Below the pieces are notes generated by a model. That model had not been told where the DNA came from. It searched no databases and saw only the letters and a list, made by a program, of their open reading frames with translations. Source: an uncultured Methanosarcinales archaeon (GTDB taxonomy: Archaea; Nanobdellota; Nanobdellia; Woesearchaeales; GW2011-AR9). Taken from it: a stretch of 64,000 bases of DNA. The stretch's first letter is position 1; every line of letters begins with the position of its first letter. Shown piece after piece: positions 2,039 through 31,676 of this stretch. The stretch is from positions 88,664-152,663 of the forward strand of contig CAYFMJ010000001.1 of assembly GCA_964344235.1 (NCBI GenBank), given 5' to 3'. Made by a program: the position numbers and the translations under genes.

Positions 2039-2229
2039 GCGGACGTGCCGGAGAACTCACTTCGTTCGTGCTCCAACAAACGAAGTTTGTCCGGAGTGGT
2101 CAAACGGGACGGTTCGTTTGGCATTACGGTGCCAAGTGAGTCCATACTCAAATGCTAAAACCATTTCCTGATTTAGCGTAGAGCTATCCGTTGGTTTAGT
2201 ACCTACGCAGGTTCGAACCCTGCCGTCCG
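2039..2229 (+). tRNA. Intron-containing tRNA of about 190 nt; identity and anticodon not resolved
   Basis: 5' acceptor gcggacg pairs perfectly with 3' cgtccgc, followed by discriminator a. The T-arm is gcagg-TTCGAAC-cctgc immediately upstream of the 3' acceptor strand. A D-loop-like TGGTCAAA segment is present. The total span is too long for a mature tRNA, implying at least one long intron or non-canonical introns. Confidence 0.5.
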
Positions 2230-2314
2230 CACTTTATTATTGTATTCTTTCTTCTTAATTCAACTTTTAAATTGTAATTTTAGCCACTGGTCACTGGACA
2301 ACCACTAGCAGAGT

Positions 2315-2323
2315 TTATATACA
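2315..2323 (+). promoter_or_regulatory. TATA box (tttatatac) about 33 nt upstream of the LAGLIDADG gene start
   Basis: AT-rich TATA-like octamer at the expected archaeal distance from the ATG at 2357. Confidence 0.35.
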
Positions 2324-2356
2324 AAATCACTTACGAAGTTTCACAGTACCAAGATT

Positions 2357-3112
2357 ATGAATACAAAAATAAATCCGGAGGTTGCAGAGATCCTAGGAGC
2401 CTTTATAGGAGATGGGTGGCTTGAAAGCTCATTAGGTGCGATCTACATTACGGGTGATAAAACTGAGGATAAAGAGTATTATGATGCATTTTTAGGCCCT
2501 TTGTTTAGTGAACACTTTTCTCCCGTCACACCACAGCAATTCCCGTACTGGAATGTATATGGAATTGGTTCTTCTAAGAAAATAGCAATTGAGAAGTGCT
2601 TGAGTCTCGGTTTTCAACCAGGAAGTAAAGCACTCGTTGCAAAAATGCCAGACTTTATTATGAAAACACAAAATGTTGAGGTTAAGAAAGCTATTCTAAG
2701 GGGTATCTTTGACGCTGATGGATGTATATGGTTTGATAGATCAAGAGCCAAGACATCTAACGAATGGAAGAGAAAATATCATTATATTCCAATTATAGAA
2801 ATTTCCTCTTGTTCACAAAATTTATTACAACAAATGAAAGAAATCCTAACTACTTTTGGAATAGAATCACTTATTATACTAAAGAGTAAAGCGGGAAGAA
2901 AATTCAATAGGAATCGACATGATTCTTTCTCTTTAAAAATAAGGAAAATTGACCATGTTAAAAAATGGTTCAGTATTATTGGTTCTAGTAATTCAAGACA
3001 CCAAACGAGGTATGCTGTTTGGAAAAAATTCGGCTTTCTTCCGCCAAGGACAAATATTAACCAAAGAAAGCAAATTTTAGCGGGGAAATTAGATCCTAAG
3101 AGTTTCTATTAA
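2357..3112 (+). CDS. Free-standing double-motif LAGLIDADG homing endonuclease
   Basis: Two LAGLIDADG motifs: ILGAFIGDGWLE and ILRGIFDADGCIW. 251 aa. It has its own TATA box and is not embedded in an intein or an obvious intron. Confidence 0.8.
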   Translation: MNTKINPEVAEILGAFIGDGWLESSLGAIYITGDKTEDKEYYDAFLGPLFSEHFSPVTPQQFPYWNVYGIGSSKKIAIEKCLSLGFQPGSKALVAKMPDFIMKTQNVEVKKAILRGIFDADGCIWFDRSRAKTSNEWKRKYHYIPIIEISSCSQNLLQQMKEILTTFGIESLIILKSKAGRKFNRNRHDSFSLKIRKIDHVKKWFSIIGSSNSRHQTRYAVWKKFGFLPPRTNINQRKQILAGKLDPKSFY

Positions 3113-3147
3113 GTTTCACATAGCTTTTTAAACACCCAAAGTATTCT

Positions 3148-4488
3148 TTGTGGATGCCAATTGAAGTATGCAGCATCGGTGGATTCTCGAAAACAGAAGG
3201 GAATTCCGTTGCGATTAAAGTTGATGATGAAGTTGTTATTCTTGATATGGGTTTAGGGATGGAGTCGTACATCAAGTATCAGGAAGACCGCGAAGATGTC
3301 AAGAGCGAGAAGGATTACAAAGATCTTGTAAAAGTTGGTGCGGTTCCTAATTATAGTTTCATTGCTGATTGGAAAAGCATGGTTAAGGCGATCGTGCCAA
3401 GCCATGGTCACCTCGACCACGTAGGGGCGATTCCGTTTGGTGCGCATTTATTCCCGACTGCCCCCGTGGTGTCAACACCGTATAGTATTGAGGTGCTGAA
3501 AAGTATTTTATGGGATGAGCACATTAAGTTACGGAATGAATTAGTAACGATTCAATTAAATGGTTTGTATAAAGTGTCTGACAAGATTACATTAGAGTTC
3601 ATTAATGTGACACATTCTATTCCACACACGGCAATAATCTGCGTGCATACCCCATATGGCAAGGTGTTATATGCTAATGATTACAAGTTTGATAGACAAC
3701 CAGTGATTGGAAAGAAGCCAAACTTTGCACGGTTGAAAGAGTTAGGAGATGAAGGAGTTGCGTTACTTATTGTGAACTGTTTATATGCGCACGCGCAAAA
3801 GAAAACCCCCTCTGAATCAGTTGCACGACAAATGTTGAAAGATGTGGTGTTGGGAGTAGAGACGGAAGGAAAAGCGATGATTGTGACAACGTTTAGTAGT
3901 CATTTAGCAAGGCTAAAAAGTATCATCGAAATGGGGAGGAAACTAGATCGAAAAATAGTGTTTATTGGTAGGTCGCTGATGAAGTATGTGAAAGCGGCTG
4001 AAAGAATTAATTTGGTTTCGTTTACCAATCAAGTAAAGATGATGAGGCATCGGGATAAAATTGAGCAAACATTAAGGCAAGTACAAAAGAATAAAGGGAA
4101 ATATCTTATTGTCTGTACGGGCCACCAAGGGGAACCGCGAGCGGTGTTATCACGAATAGCTCGAGGGGAGCTGGACTTCAAGTTGAGTCATGGAGATGTT
4201 ATAATATTTAGTTGTCAAGTTATTCCCGTTGAAGTCAGTATCAAAAATCGTGAAAGATTGGAAAAGAGTTTACGCAATTATAATGTAAGAATCTTCAGAG
4301 ATGTCCACGTTTCCGGCCATGGGGCACTGGAAGATCATCGTGATTTATTGGAATTAGTAAAGCCAAAGGAAATTATGCCGATTCACGCCGAGAACGAGAA
4401 AGCGAAGATGCTTGCTGATTTCGCAGCGAAGTTGGGGTATAAGAAAACACATATCATGCAAGATGGTGGGAGAATAGTTGTCAAGTGA
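3148..4488 (+). CDS. Beta-CASP metallo-beta-lactamase ribonuclease (archaeal RNase J / aCPSF2-like)
   Basis: MBL motif HGHLDHVGAIP. About 446 aa, consistent with archaeal RNase J-like beta-CASP proteins. No N-terminal KH domains. Confidence 0.7.
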   Translation: MWMPIEVCSIGGFSKTEGNSVAIKVDDEVVILDMGLGMESYIKYQEDREDVKSEKDYKDLVKVGAVPNYSFIADWKSMVKAIVPSHGHLDHVGAIPFGAHLFPTAPVVSTPYSIEVLKSILWDEHIKLRNELVTIQLNGLYKVSDKITLEFINVTHSIPHTAIICVHTPYGKVLYANDYKFDRQPVIGKKPNFARLKELGDEGVALLIVNCLYAHAQKKTPSESVARQMLKDVVLGVETEGKAMIVTTFSSHLARLKSIIEMGRKLDRKIVFIGRSLMKYVKAAERINLVSFTNQVKMMRHRDKIEQTLRQVQKNKGKYLIVCTGHQGEPRAVLSRIARGELDFKLSHGDVIIFSCQVIPVEVSIKNRERLEKSLRNYNVRIFRDVHVSGHGALEDHRDLLELVKPKEIMPIHAENEKAKMLADFAAKLGYKKTHIMQDGGRIVVK

Positions 4489-4586: not shown

Positions 4587-5333
4587 ATGAAATTAGTCTT
4601 AGCAGAACCACGATATTTTAAGGATAGTATTTCTATTGTTTCAGAATTAGTTACGGAGGCGAAGTTTAAGATTGGGAAGGATGGATTAGAGTTAGTGGCG
4701 ATGGATCCCGCGAACGTGGCGATGGTGGTGTTTAAATTATTAAGTAGTTCTTTTACACAGTATGAAGTTTCTGAACCAGAAGAAGTAGCAATTAATTTAG
4801 GGAATTTAAAACAGATTCTGCGAAGGGCGAAGGGTGATGATGTTTTAACCCTTGAAACTACGGAGGATAATAAATTAAAGATTCAGATGAAAAGTGGAAC
4901 GACACGTTCATTTTCAATTCCAACGTTAGAGATTGAGGATAAGGAGCAGCGTGTGCCAGATTTAACATTTCCCATTACAGTTACTATGACTGCAGATATG
5001 CTAGCTGAAGCGGTTGAAGACGTTTCCGTTGTTGCGGAGTCGGTGACGTTTCTGGGAGAGAAGCAACAATTATTAGTGAAAGCAGAAGGGGATTTATCAA
5101 AAGCGTTTATTGAAATTAAGCCGAATGATACGGCTGCCATTGTAGCGGAAGCAGATACCAAGTATAAAGCAAAGTATTCTTTGGAGTATCTGAAGAAAAT
5201 GATTTCCGGTGGGAAGTTAACTGACCAAGTAACTTTACAGTTTAACACGGATTATCCAATGAAGTTAGAATATAAGTTAACGGACAGGTTGTTGTTAAGT
5301 TTTATTCTCGCTCCTCGAGTCGATAATGATTAG
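4587..5333 (+). CDS. pcn: DNA polymerase sliding clamp PCNA
   Basis: 248 aa. The N-terminus MKLVLAEPRYFKDSISIVSELVTEAKFKI...GLELVAMDPANVAMVVFKL matches the archaeal PCNA architecture. Confidence 0.85.
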   Translation: MKLVLAEPRYFKDSISIVSELVTEAKFKIGKDGLELVAMDPANVAMVVFKLLSSSFTQYEVSEPEEVAINLGNLKQILRRAKGDDVLTLETTEDNKLKIQMKSGTTRSFSIPTLEIEDKEQRVPDLTFPITVTMTADMLAEAVEDVSVVAESVTFLGEKQQLLVKAEGDLSKAFIEIKPNDTAAIVAEADTKYKAKYSLEYLKKMISGGKLTDQVTLQFNTDYPMKLEYKLTDRLLLSFILAPRVDND

Positions 5334-23464: not shown

Positions 23465-23571
23465 TGGTGGGGCCGCCCAGATTTGAACTGGGGTCTAAGC
23501 GTCCCAAACGCCCAATGCTAGATTGCTCCTAGCGACTTGTGTCTTGCTAGACCAAGCTACACTACGGCCCC
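23465..23571 (-). tRNA. Intron-containing tRNA with genomically encoded CCA; tentatively tRNA-Pro (anticodon UGG)
   Basis: Minus strand. Acceptor ggggccg/cggcccc, discriminator A, then CCA. T-arm cccag-TTCAAAT-ctggg. Candidate anticodon arm gggcg-tttGGGa... read as loop uuUGGga. About 30 extra nt lie between the D-region and the anticodon stem, which is a non-canonical intron position. Confidence 0.55.
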
Positions 23572-30866: not shown

Positions 30867-31676
30867 ATGCGCCTTACTCAGAAAAAAACTATTGAAATTC
30901 TTGTAGATATTATTGGTGAAGCAGGGACTAACCTGATTGAGGAGTTAATTGGAAAAGAGAATGTTTCTGAGTTTGATTTGGCAAAGAGAACCAAAAAAGA
31001 CATCAAAGTGGTTCGAAAGATGTTATACATGTTGTATAACCATAACCTTGTTGGTTTTACGAGAAAGAAGGATAAGCAGAAAGGTTGGTATATCTATTAT
31101 TGGACACTTCTACCAGAAAGTATCAAGTTTAGTTATTTCAAAACGAAGAGGGATTTGTTAGAGCGATTAAAAGCGCAGCTTGATGCGGAGCAGGAAGAAT
31201 TATTTTTCGTTTGTCCAAATGATTGTGTGAGGTTAACGTTTGATCAGGGAATGGATTTTGAGTTTCACTGCCCGGAGTGTGGGGAGTTGATTCACCAAGA
31301 TGATGGTGAGAAGCGAAAAGCAGATCTGCAGAAGAAGATTGCTAAGTTAGAAGAAGAAGTGAAAACGTTATTAGAACACCGGAAAGCTCGAAGGAAGAGA
31401 ATTAAGGAGAAGAAGGAAGTTGTAAAAGCGAAGAGTAAAGTTGCAACGAGGAAAAAGGCTGTGAAGAAACCAGCGAAAAAGAAAGTTGTTAAGAAAGCTG
31501 CAACGAAGAAGAAGAGTTCTGCAAAGAAAAAAGAAGTAAAAAAGGTGACGAAGAAAAAAACGGCAGTGAAAAAGAAGGCTGCGGTGAAGAAAAAAGTAGT
31601 TGCGTCTCGAAAGAAAGCTGCGAAAAAACCAGCGAAAAAAGTTGCTAAAAAGAAAGCGACAAAAAAGAAAAAATAG
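30867..31676 (+). CDS. tfe: Transcription factor E (TFIIE-alpha homologue) with a long Lys/Ala-rich C-terminal tail
   Basis: N-terminal winged helix. Zn ribbon FVCPNDCVRLTFDQGMDFEFHCPECGEL. Then about 100 aa of KKPAKKKVVKK repeats. Confidence 0.7.
   Translation: MRLTQKKTIEILVDIIGEAGTNLIEELIGKENVSEFDLAKRTKKDIKVVRKMLYMLYNHNLVGFTRKKDKQKGWYIYYWTLLPESIKFSYFKTKRDLLERLKAQLDAEQEELFFVCPNDCVRLTFDQGMDFEFHCPECGELIHQDDGEKRKADLQKKIAKLEEEVKTLLEHRKARRKRIKEKKEVVKAKSKVATRKKAVKKPAKKKVVKKAATKKKSSAKKKEVKKVTKKKTAVKKKAAVKKKVVASRKKAAKKPAKKVAKKKATKKKK

Follow-up and report, generated by a model that had tools for sequence, protein, structure and literature searches.

A 64,000-nucleotide stretch of the archaeal contig CAYFMJ010000001.1 (hereafter the window, by which the whole stretch is meant) carries a tRNA-Leu(CAA) gene interrupted by three introns and, between this tRNA and the gene for RNase J, an open reading frame (ORF) for a free-standing LAGLIDADG homing endonuclease. 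Comparison with related loci indicates that this ORF is probably mobile, a homing endonuclease cassette that stands free and has the tRNA-Leu(CAA) gene as its target, and that the tRNA introns are mechanistically separate from it. It would be a selfish gene with its own promoter, from a superfamily that spans DPANN archaea and whose members are found beside tRNA genes. An earlier note, made from the sequence alone, had described an unusually long intron-containing tRNA followed by an endonuclease that may have escaped from the tRNA intron locus, may target it, or may be a domesticated copy; what it observed was confirmed, and its interpretation is partly supported.

Linkage of the endonuclease gene to tRNA genes

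The window was compared with related loci (designated by L-numbers), all of which come from metagenome assemblies. A tRNA-Leu(CAA) gene adjoins the endonuclease gene, on one side or the other, in 15 of the 15 readable loci that encode homologues of at least 38% identity. In the six closest loci, L006 to L011 (47-65% identity), it lies 70-170 nt upstream on the same strand, as it does in the window, and the same arrangement is found in L090, L111, L166 and L167. In L012 to L014 and L168 (38-42% identity), the tRNA-Leu(CAA) gene is located downstream and the ORF runs into the tRNA 5' end; in L012 and L013 the acceptor stem provides the last codons, and tRNA positions 8-10 (TAG) are the stop codon. 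The clade to which the window's endonuclease belongs thus appears specific for tRNA-Leu(CAA).

The linkage extends to the superfamily (24-33% identity), which comprises DPANN sequences and a few metagenome-assembled genomes (MAGs) labelled candidate phyla radiation (CPR). Of 75 superfamily ORFs, 31 end against or within a tRNA gene, versus 24 of 386 other ORFs of the same loci (odds ratio 10.6, p = 1e-13). The adjoining tRNAs are of many identities (Thr, His, Ile, Ser, Arg, Trp, Ala, Asn, Gly and Leu), and many of them are intron-less. As a control, 68 viral loci with distant LAGLIDADG relatives gave zero tRNA calls; the scan of viral contigs found only distant relatives, none linked to a tRNA, and hence no sign that viruses carry the family.

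The overlap between the ORF and the tRNA 5' end measures exactly 10 nt in many superfamily members (L012 4726-4735, L013 4411-4420, L024, L025, L043, L070 and others), the last two to three codons being taken from the acceptor stem and U8-A9-G10 being read as a TAG stop. In such an arrangement, RNase P cleavage of a co-transcript would strip the stop codon from the mRNA. Members that abut tRNA-Ser(CGA) occur in MAGs binned as bacteria (L063, L070, L072 and L075; Taylorbacteria, Paceibacterota, Pseudomonadales and Gammaproteobacteria), and these represent either a real presence in the CPR or mis-binned DPANN contigs.

Presence, absence, decay and exchange at the tRNA-Leu/RNase J locus

Scanning metagenomes with RNase J gave 80 related loci. 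The endonuclease gene is missing from about 20 distinct alleles of the tRNA-Leu/RNase J locus; the six carriers at this locus (L111 and L090 from the RNase J scan, and the window, L006, L008 and L009 from an earlier scan) are scattered over the RNase J tree. In many of the gene-less loci (L091, L093, L095/097, L117, L122, L124, L133, L136/137 and L142), RNase J follows tRNA-Leu(CAA) after 45-90 nt, and the TATA-like box of RNase J stands directly after the tRNA trailer. In L090 the gene has decayed: an internal deletion is combined with a frameshift, so that a different frame now holds the conserved C-terminus; this is the only decayed copy seen.

The carrier L111 shares about 90% flanking DNA identity with the gene-less loci L132, L113 and L109. 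This identity breaks off just past the TATA box of the tRNA and returns at that of RNase J, and the block in between differs: in L111 it consists of the tRNA allele, the endonuclease gene and an ORF for a CxxC protein, and in its relatives of a tRNA allele with an intron at position 37/38 and a 71-aa ORF. In L166, a complete tRNA-Leu(CAA) gene with the acceptor strand GCGGACG is followed by the endonuclease gene, and 15 nt past the stop codon stands a 35-nt tRNA relic, TAGTGCCTACGCAGGTTCGAGCCCTGCCACCCACA (p < 0.003), which is identical to the 3' end of the gene-less GTGGGTG-type alleles L142, L143 and L101 and is followed by the usual trailer and RNase J. A 17-nt relic is located at the stop codon of L006 (p = 0.06); for the window, L007-L010, L090, L111 and L167, tRNA relics beyond the stop codon fell short of significance. 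Three observations may point to co-conversion of the flanking tRNA, though shared ancestry may lie behind them: the block difference in L111, the allele type of the L166 relic, and the acceptor strand GCGGACG, which occurs in all five carrier alleles of the clade versus 8 of 21 non-carriers (p = 0.04). Presence and absence, decay, exchange and relic together are the marks that would be expected from the life cycle of a homing endonuclease and from a cassette that replaces the tRNA.

Two further loci show related structures. In the gene-less L100 (2594-2690), a 13-nt direct repeat of the tRNA-Leu 3' end, CTGCCGTCCGCAC, is found 66 nt downstream of the tRNA and may be the footprint of a lost insertion. 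In L062 (3801-4770, from a MAG labelled Nitrososphaerota), a complete tRNA is followed by a LAGLIDADG ORF on the opposite strand and then by a second T-arm and acceptor 3' strand; both 3' ends carry CGCCGGC, and ARAGORN reads the whole as one tRNA with an 837-nt intron. This looks like the relic pattern in another phylum.

The variable arm as a candidate target

LAGLIDADG enzymes make site-specific double-strand breaks in targets of about 18-22 bp, leaving 4-nt 3' overhangs. The target of the window's endonuclease would be expected within the tRNA-Leu gene, and the variable arm is a candidate. Of the 21 non-carrier alleles in the RNase J clade, 17 keep its 15-nt segment TGGCTTAGTGCCTAC unchanged and 4 deviate from it, and the segment is altered in all five carrier alleles (p = 0.002, with no phylogenetic correction). 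The carriers show four different variants, two of which represent compensatory stem changes: GGT..ACC in the window and L006, and AGC..GCT in L111. The L166 relic starts within the same segment. On these grounds the enzyme might recognise a site around the variable loop, to which substitutions would have made the resident alleles immune, but we consider this less likely than not.

The endonuclease protein

The first-ATG ORF starts 125 nt past the discriminator base of the tRNA and ends 41 nt before RNase J. It matches the Pfam family LAGLIDADG_3 (PF14528) with 37.9 bits against a cut-off of 22.5 (E = 2.2e-9) and contains the two motifs LGAFIGDG (2393-2416, with Asp19 at 2411-2413) and LRGIFDADG (2696-2722, with Asp119 and Asp121). 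Across 29 aligned homologues, D119 and D121 never vary, D19 is kept in at least 90%, and G18, G20 and G122 are invariant or nearly so; a C-terminal helical extension is also well conserved. The AlphaFold2 model (predicted local distance difference test score 96, predicted template modelling (TM) score 0.92) and Foldseek comparison describe a tandem alpha-beta-beta-alpha-beta-beta-alpha fold that forms a DNA-binding saddle. The best Foldseek matches were I-Tsp061I (TM score 0.75 on the target) and I-DmoI (about 0.7), together with the endonuclease domains of the inteins PI-SceI and PI-PfuI; WhiA (E = 5e-7) and the bI3 maturase ranked lower. Profile matches in the PDB were to intein and intron LAGLIDADG enzymes. 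From these features, the 251-aa protein is predicted to cleave DNA.

That the ORF encodes a double-motif LAGLIDADG protein, has a TATA box of its own (TTTATATA, 2314-2321) and lies outside any intron or intein had been stated in the earlier note and was borne out: the ORF has its own start and stop codons and forms no part of a larger ORF. The search for full-length homologues found about 50, with lengths of 240-270 aa and 38-69% identity, and the identical protein is also encoded on metagenome contigs of up to 413 kb. The homologues are annotated as Woesearchaeota, Nanoarchaeota or Pacearchaeota, which places the organism among the DPANN archaea. An exhaustive search yielded 1115 clusters at E <= 1e-3, 328 at E <= 1e-10 and 26 at E <= 1e-30, most of them of the size of a free-standing protein. 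No family member was found inside a tRNA or rRNA intron; escape from an intron may still be the remote origin of the gene.

Structure of the tRNA-Leu(CAA) gene

The tRNA gene comprises 193 nt (2039-2231). Its 7-bp acceptor pairing is perfect, GCGGACG (2039-2045) with CGTCCGC (2224-2230), the discriminator base is A2231, and the T-arm, GCAGG-TTCGAAC-CCTGC, is canonical. The perfect acceptor complementarity, the T-arm and the length of about 190 nt had all been recognised previously; the 3' end had been set at 2229, 2 nt too early. Of the two structures then considered, one very long intron or several, the spliced cloverleaf and the orthologues support the second, with three introns (Table 1).

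Intron boundaries were parsed by hand according to the bulge-helix-bulge (BHB) rule, a 4-bp central helix between two 3-nt bulges, each cut after its second base, and were checked against the minimum free energy fold. The central helix of intron 1 is CCGG (2048-2051)/CCGG (2091-2094) with the bulges AGA and AGU; there is no outer helix, so that the motif is of the HBh' type, and the inner helix is the hairpin cttcgtt/aacgaag reported earlier with 7 bp, which in fact has 8 (ACTTCGTT/AACGAAGT). The cut is ambiguous within the repeated CCGGAG, and the BHB geometry places it at position 15/16; the end of exon 1 is fixed by the uninterrupted GCCGGAGTGGTCAAAC in L006, L093, L100 and L111. Intron 1 is absent from L006 and further orthologues. 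Intron 2 is also of the HBh' type, with no outer helix, the central helix GGAC (2107-2110)/GUCC (2140-2143), bulges GGU and AUA, and an inner hairpin of 11 bp. The BHB of intron 3 is relaxed, with three of four pairs (CUC/GAG paired, the fourth being A.A) and the inner helix GCUAAA/UUUAGC; since intron-less alleles read CTCAAAATCC, a junction at 37/38 (A38) is favoured over 38/39. The long variable arm in exon 4 is GGTTTAGTACC, and CCA is not encoded.

Table 1 Features of the tRNA-Leu(CAA)/RNase J region of the window
Feature	Position	Strand	Description
TATA-like box of tRNA-Leu, TTTTATAAAA	2006..2015	+	Read from the sequence; about 28 nt 5' of tRNA position 1
Exon 1	2039..2053	+	Positions 1-15: acceptor 5' strand, D-stem 5' strand, start of D-loop
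Intron 1	2054..2096	+	43 nt, position 15/16
Exon 2	2097..2112	+	Remaining D-arm, position 26, anticodon-stem positions 27-30
Intron 2	2113..2145	+	33 nt, non-canonical position 30/31
Exon 3	2146..2152	+	Position 31 and anticodon loop 32-37, ACUCAAA; anticodon CAA
Intron 3	2153..2185	+	33 nt, canonical position 37/38
Exon 4	2186..2231	+	Position 38, anticodon-stem 3' strand, variable arm, T-arm, acceptor 3' strand, discriminator A
Conserved non-coding block	2257..2353	+	5' of the endonuclease ORF
LAGLIDADG homing endonuclease ORF	2357..3112	+	251 aa, first-ATG ORF, free-standing, double-motif
Spacer to RNase J	3113..3153	+	Holds the RNase J TATA-like box CTTTTTAAAC
RNase J	3154-4488		Housekeeping gene downstream
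PCNA	4587-5333		Housekeeping gene downstream

The spliced sequence is an 84-nt tRNA-Leu(CAA) with a clean cloverleaf that is accepted by ARAGORN. When intron 1 was retained ARAGORN detected no tRNA, and retention of intron 1 or 2 gave nothing or a distorted call. A splice-aware alignment to intron-less orthologues, which made no use of the BHB rule, returned the same three introns, and we regard this comparative evidence for a three-intron structure as decisive. The fold of the pre-tRNA was better than that of 200 out of 200 shuffled sequences (z = -4.07). In a brute-force enumeration of three-exon anticodon arms, which produced 932 candidates, only ACGGA-CUCAAAA-UCCGU fitted both the BHB geometry and the orthologues. 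The introns would presumably be excised by the archaeal splicing endonuclease and joined by ligase to give an ordinary 84-nt type-II tRNA. The TATA-like box upstream of the tRNA presumably serves as its promoter; TTTATAAAA is likewise found 5' of the orthologous tRNA in L006, L093, L095, L111 and L132.

Standard searches miss this gene. Default ARAGORN and Rfam at the gathering threshold called no tRNA in the entire 64-kb window, a permissive Rfam scan (E-value mode) of 1950-2350 found none, and ARAGORN allowing anticodon-loop introns did not find tRNA-Leu; with relaxed thresholds it produced more than 100 meaningless calls. A second hidden tRNA is located at 23468-23571 on the minus strand. 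ARAGORN with introns miscalls it as Ala(cgc); in most trials, excision of about 28 nt of the D-arm region, flanked by repeated TCTAGCA, gave a tRNA-Pro(UGG), whose 3' CCA is apparently encoded. These two are the only convincing tRNA candidates in the 64 kb, and neither is called by default ARAGORN or gathering-threshold Rfam; one more match to an acceptor/T-arm pattern lies at 30877-30970.

Intron variation across relatives

The comparison of introns took in 31 tRNA-Leu(CAA) alleles. The mature tRNA of the window is identical to that of L006 (84/84) and near-identical to those of the intron-less alleles L100, L101, L138 and L111. The number of introns per allele ranges from 0 to 3, the sites being in the D-arm, at 30/31, at 37/38 and in the T-loop, and in L006 intron 1 is replaced by a T-loop intron. 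Homologues of the 30/31 intron are present in nine alleles. Pairing of their central helix holds in 100% of cells and includes one compensatory change; when the partner strand was slid, only 9-67% were paired. Homologues of the 33-nt intron 3 (TGCTAAAACCATTTCC...) occur in L006, L124, L133, L132 and L113. The additional T-loop intron, 23-48 nt long and inserted after GGTTCGAA, is located at 3828-3875 in L006, with equivalent sites in L008, L009, L117 and L125. Among the relatives, this one tRNA gene has at least five distinct intron sites.

Alleles without the endonuclease gene hold 0 to 3 introns of every type, L010, L011 and L167 have the endonuclease gene with only an anticodon-loop intron (37/38 region), and in L111 an intact endonuclease gene stands beside an intron-less tRNA-Leu(CAA). 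Because the intact gene of L111 accompanies an intron-less tRNA and all intron types occur without the gene, intron content is no predictor of the endonuclease gene. By our count, the 30/31 intron is found in 6 of 9 alleles with the endonuclease gene versus 3 of 21 without it; linkage and shared ancestry suffice to explain this enrichment. The link suspected earlier between the endonuclease and the tRNA intron locus therefore holds in one respect, since the gene is tied to the tRNA and is not a chance neighbour, and fails in the other: L111, the single-intron carriers, the range of introns in gene-less alleles and the intron-less tRNAs beside superfamily members all speak against a link via introns. 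The association appears to run to the tRNA gene itself, and the introns would have no role in it. We also considered that introns are a required shield of the tRNA from the adjoining endonuclease, which was rejected as a requirement on the 31 alleles.

Duplications of the tRNA 5' end (the first 13-22 nt) were observed 5' of the functional copy, in tandem or dispersed, in L007 (about 3580-3650 and 4860-4940), L142 (about 3755-3825), L043 (3764-3779) and L013 (about 3600-3625). L007, for instance, reads GAGGGGATGCCGGAG...GCGGGGATGCCGGAG, and in L142 the repeat is exact over 17 nt. Intron 1 of the window, with its CCGGAG...CCGGAG repeat, resembles a decayed 5' duplication of this kind, which hints that D-arm introns may arise in this way. 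Upstream of endonuclease ORFs, duplicated tRNA 5' ends were significant in only 5 of 30 loci, some of which proved to be whole neighbouring tRNA genes; a 5' relic is therefore no general rule.

Locus context and the conserved upstream block

The window has a G+C content of 40%, and the genes downstream of the endonuclease include the housekeeping genes for RNase J and PCNA, with a NUDIX protein and an alpha/beta hydrolase nearby. The conserved non-coding block in front of the endonuclease ORF contains CCACTGGTCA (2284-2293), a 10-mer that occurs only once in the window, the TATA-like box mentioned above and AAATCACTTAC..GTTTCA. An nhmmer profile of the block gave matches only just 5' of endonuclease ORFs, in the window, L006, L090, L111, L043 and L049, with weak matches in L039, L052, L019 and L044. 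The DNA conservation of the block extends to L043 and L049, two loci that adjoin other tRNAs and encode proteins of only 28-37% identity. We presume that the block represents a promoter and a short 5' untranslated region that travel with the endonuclease gene; the CACTGG element, 15-25 nt 5' of the TATA box, could be an operator. The CCACTGGTCA block was also considered as a decayed copy of the tRNA D-loop (GGAGTGGTCAAAC), an idea that was rejected, as L043 has both the block and a separate, clear 5' tRNA relic.

On the other side of the ORF, the spacer 3113-3153 contains no relic tRNA fragment. In L094, L100, L101, L104, L111, L115, L126 and L143, the stretch from tRNA-Leu(CAA) to RNase J is a hot spot of variation. 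Unrelated small genes occupy it in different relatives, among them a CxxC protein of 123 aa, a hydrophobic ORF of 71 aa, an acetyltransferase-like ORF and an ORF of 399 aa. Where the endonuclease gene is present, it is always the first gene 3' of tRNA-Leu(CAA).

Discussion

The reading that we favour, and consider probable, is that the window contains a tRNA-targeting homing endonuclease cassette. According to the proposed mechanism, the enzyme would cut the tRNA-Leu(CAA) region of genomes that lack the endonuclease gene, and repair of the break from the carrier allele would copy the endonuclease gene together with the neighbouring, resistant tRNA allele. The insertion would be harmless without an intron or intein because the cassette brings a working copy of the tRNA and sits outside the mature tRNA. 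The displaced fragment of the old tRNA may persist as a relic and then decay, and in the window it would already be gone.

Several observations weigh against this reading. The identity of the endonuclease roughly tracks that of RNase J (65/61/53/57% versus 71/62/55/53%), and such parallel divergence means that long vertical residence with repeated loss would explain much of the pattern, with no need for recent homing. As the window has no relic fragment, the cassette model rests on its relatives, and all of the sequences are metagenome assemblies. The L166 relic could be the deletion remnant of a once-complete downstream tRNA instead of the mark of a cut site. Within the GCGGACG acceptor background, the variable-arm association falls to p = 0.075, and the gene-less loci L095 and L100, which have possible footprints of loss, keep the consensus variable arm. 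Both cleavage and the position of the target are predictions.

The same data were examined for other explanations. The protein might be a domesticated LAGLIDADG host factor, either a DNA-binding regulator of this locus, of the WhiA type, or a maturase-like chaperone in the folding or splicing of the multi-intron pre-tRNA. This would agree with the order coiled-coil gene, tRNA-Leu, endonuclease gene, RNase J and PCNA, which is kept where RNase J is 53-71% identical and within which the endonuclease diverges in step; with the conserved C-terminal helical extension and the structural matches to WhiA (E = 5e-7) and the bI3 maturase; and with the excess of the 30/31 intron in carriers (6/9 versus 3/21). 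WhiA and pure maturases, however, have lost the catalytic Asp residues, both of which are kept here. The gene is also missing from most relatives with the same locus, among them those with about 90% flank identity, is decayed in L090 and stands intact beside the intron-less tRNA of L111, and superfamily members abut many intron-less tRNAs. Domestication, which the earlier note had also raised, is accordingly disfavoured, and we consider it unlikely. Alternatively, the endonuclease could cut intron-less tRNA-Leu at an intron site such as 30/31, with a BHB intron protecting the allele and both elements spreading together. Intron content is indeed highly dynamic among close relatives, and the 30/31 intron is enriched in carriers (the window, L006, L007, L008, L009 and L090, and also L166 and L168). 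Such collaborative homing is nevertheless improbable: the tRNA beside the intact gene of L111 has no intron, the 30/31 intron is missing in L010, L011 and L167, and L094, L095 and L140 have it without the endonuclease gene. The association also ignores shared ancestry, and hitch-hiking of the neighbouring tRNA allele would yield the same enrichment.

We regard the remaining alternatives as highly improbable, namely that the gene is cargo of an integrase-type element or island remnant that used the tRNA 3' end as its attachment (att) site, or a chance neighbour in a hot spot. The variable interval does contain unrelated small genes in other relatives (the CxxC protein, the 71-aa ORF and the acetyltransferase-like ORF), and L100 has its 13-nt direct repeat of the tRNA 3' end. 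Against this, no integrase or recombinase is present, and the insert is a single gene of about 0.9 kb with its own conserved upstream block that invariably comes first after the tRNA; adjacency to tRNA-Leu(CAA) on either side in 15 of 15 readable loci argues the same way, and chance is excluded by the superfamily enrichment (p = 1e-13).

The closest functional analogue of the proposed tRNA-targeting cassette appears to be SegB of phage T4, a free-standing GIY-YIG endonuclease in a tRNA cluster that drives the preferential inheritance of its region (PMC2330249). As with SegB and other Seg and Mob enzymes, the gene is free-standing, among or beside tRNA genes, and present or absent between relatives. 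In T4, such genes spread by cutting the gene-less allele, with co-conversion of the flanking tRNA, and the patterns of L111 and L166 suggest that the same may happen here. Unlike SegB, the window's enzyme is a LAGLIDADG protein of archaeal chromosomes, its cleavage is predicted, and it belongs to a superfamily whose clades each keep to a single tRNA identity and whose ORFs are often fused to the tRNA 5' end. With I-DmoI, I-Tsp061I, I-PorI, PI-PfuI and the Tli VMA intein, the protein shares the fold, the two motifs per chain and the conserved catalytic acidic residues; it differs from them by about 50 extra C-terminal residues and an identity of only 15-19%. In those intein and rRNA BHB intron systems (I-DmoI, I-Tsp061I and I-PorI being of the latter kind), splicing makes the insertion harmless, whereas the window's enzyme is free-standing beside a tRNA.

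The model nearest to the idea of the earlier note is that of F-CphI and the psbA group I intron of cyanophage S-PM2, for which collaborative homing has been proposed (mentioned in PMC6083498). There too, a free-standing endonuclease gene lies beside an intron-containing gene, but the defining feature, an intron that interrupts the target so that intron and gene co-occur, is not seen here, as L111, L010, L011, L167 and the intron-bearing gene-less alleles show. For the logic of the cassette, the closest case seems to be the disrupted tRNA-Thr of Caldiarchaeum subterraneum, where a 1.8-kb element with a DNA recombinase resembles integrating plasmids (Sugahara et al. 2012, PMC3293823). Both cases combine population heterogeneity at one locus, an element between a tRNA fragment and a complete tRNA, and gain or loss of introns; here, unlike in Caldiarchaeum, the sole cargo is a LAGLIDADG endonuclease and the pattern recurs at many tRNA identities across DPANN. 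The tRNA itself fits a known class: multi-intron tRNA genes with non-canonical BHB introns are described in Thermoproteales, Korarchaeota and ARMAN/DPANN (review PMC4090602), and splicing endonucleases of broad specificity are also known (PMC5829648). With up to three introns, relaxed HBh' motifs outside 37/38 and escape from standard finders, tRNA-Leu(CAA) shows no essential difference from these genes and is a further member of the class, ordinary though extreme.

Mobile endonuclease ORFs of mitochondria, such as that of Allomyces atp6, insert at the ends of genes together with a replacement terminus, and the old terminus becomes a pseudogene. The logic of a cassette with a displaced relic (L166 and L006) is shared with this case, which we take as a lead only; the target there is an organellar protein-coding gene.

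A broader reading, which we put forward tentatively and consider rather unlikely as a whole, is that a large and so far undescribed class of tRNA-homing cassettes exists in DPANN archaea and perhaps also in some CPR bacteria. Such cassettes would be harmless because they carry part or all of a replacement tRNA, and would not depend on splicing. In some versions the ORF is joined directly to tRNA position +1, with U8-A9-G10 read as the stop. As the cassettes insert, co-convert and decay, they would leave behind 5' or 3' pieces of tRNAs and short tandem duplications, some of which could later become non-canonical BHB introns, so that the cassettes would directly drive both tRNA disruption and intron gain in archaea. 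The CCGGAG...CCGGAG repeat of intron 1 resembles the 13-17-nt 5' duplications in L007 and L142.

A literature search, which largely did not extend to subscription papers, found no description of tRNA-linked free-standing LAGLIDADG genes in archaea; the tRNA-associated endonuclease lineage is widespread and apparently undescribed. Homing endonucleases are thought to need a splicing host, an intron or intein, or, in phages, an intergenic niche beside their target, and tRNA genes are among the most conserved short sequences in genomes. Our findings suggest that a LAGLIDADG lineage of cellular chromosomes is specialised on tRNA genes, in the smallest archaeal genomes, where each gene should pay. 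They also indicate that the tRNA sets of DPANN are under-called, as both tRNAs of the window are invisible to default tools. If cleavage of the tRNA gene proves true, the cassette with its replacement tRNA would represent a new homing strategy, would supply dozens of natural meganucleases with predictable targets in tRNA genes, and would provide a concrete agent for the long-standing idea that attack by mobile elements fragments archaeal tRNA genes and fills them with introns.

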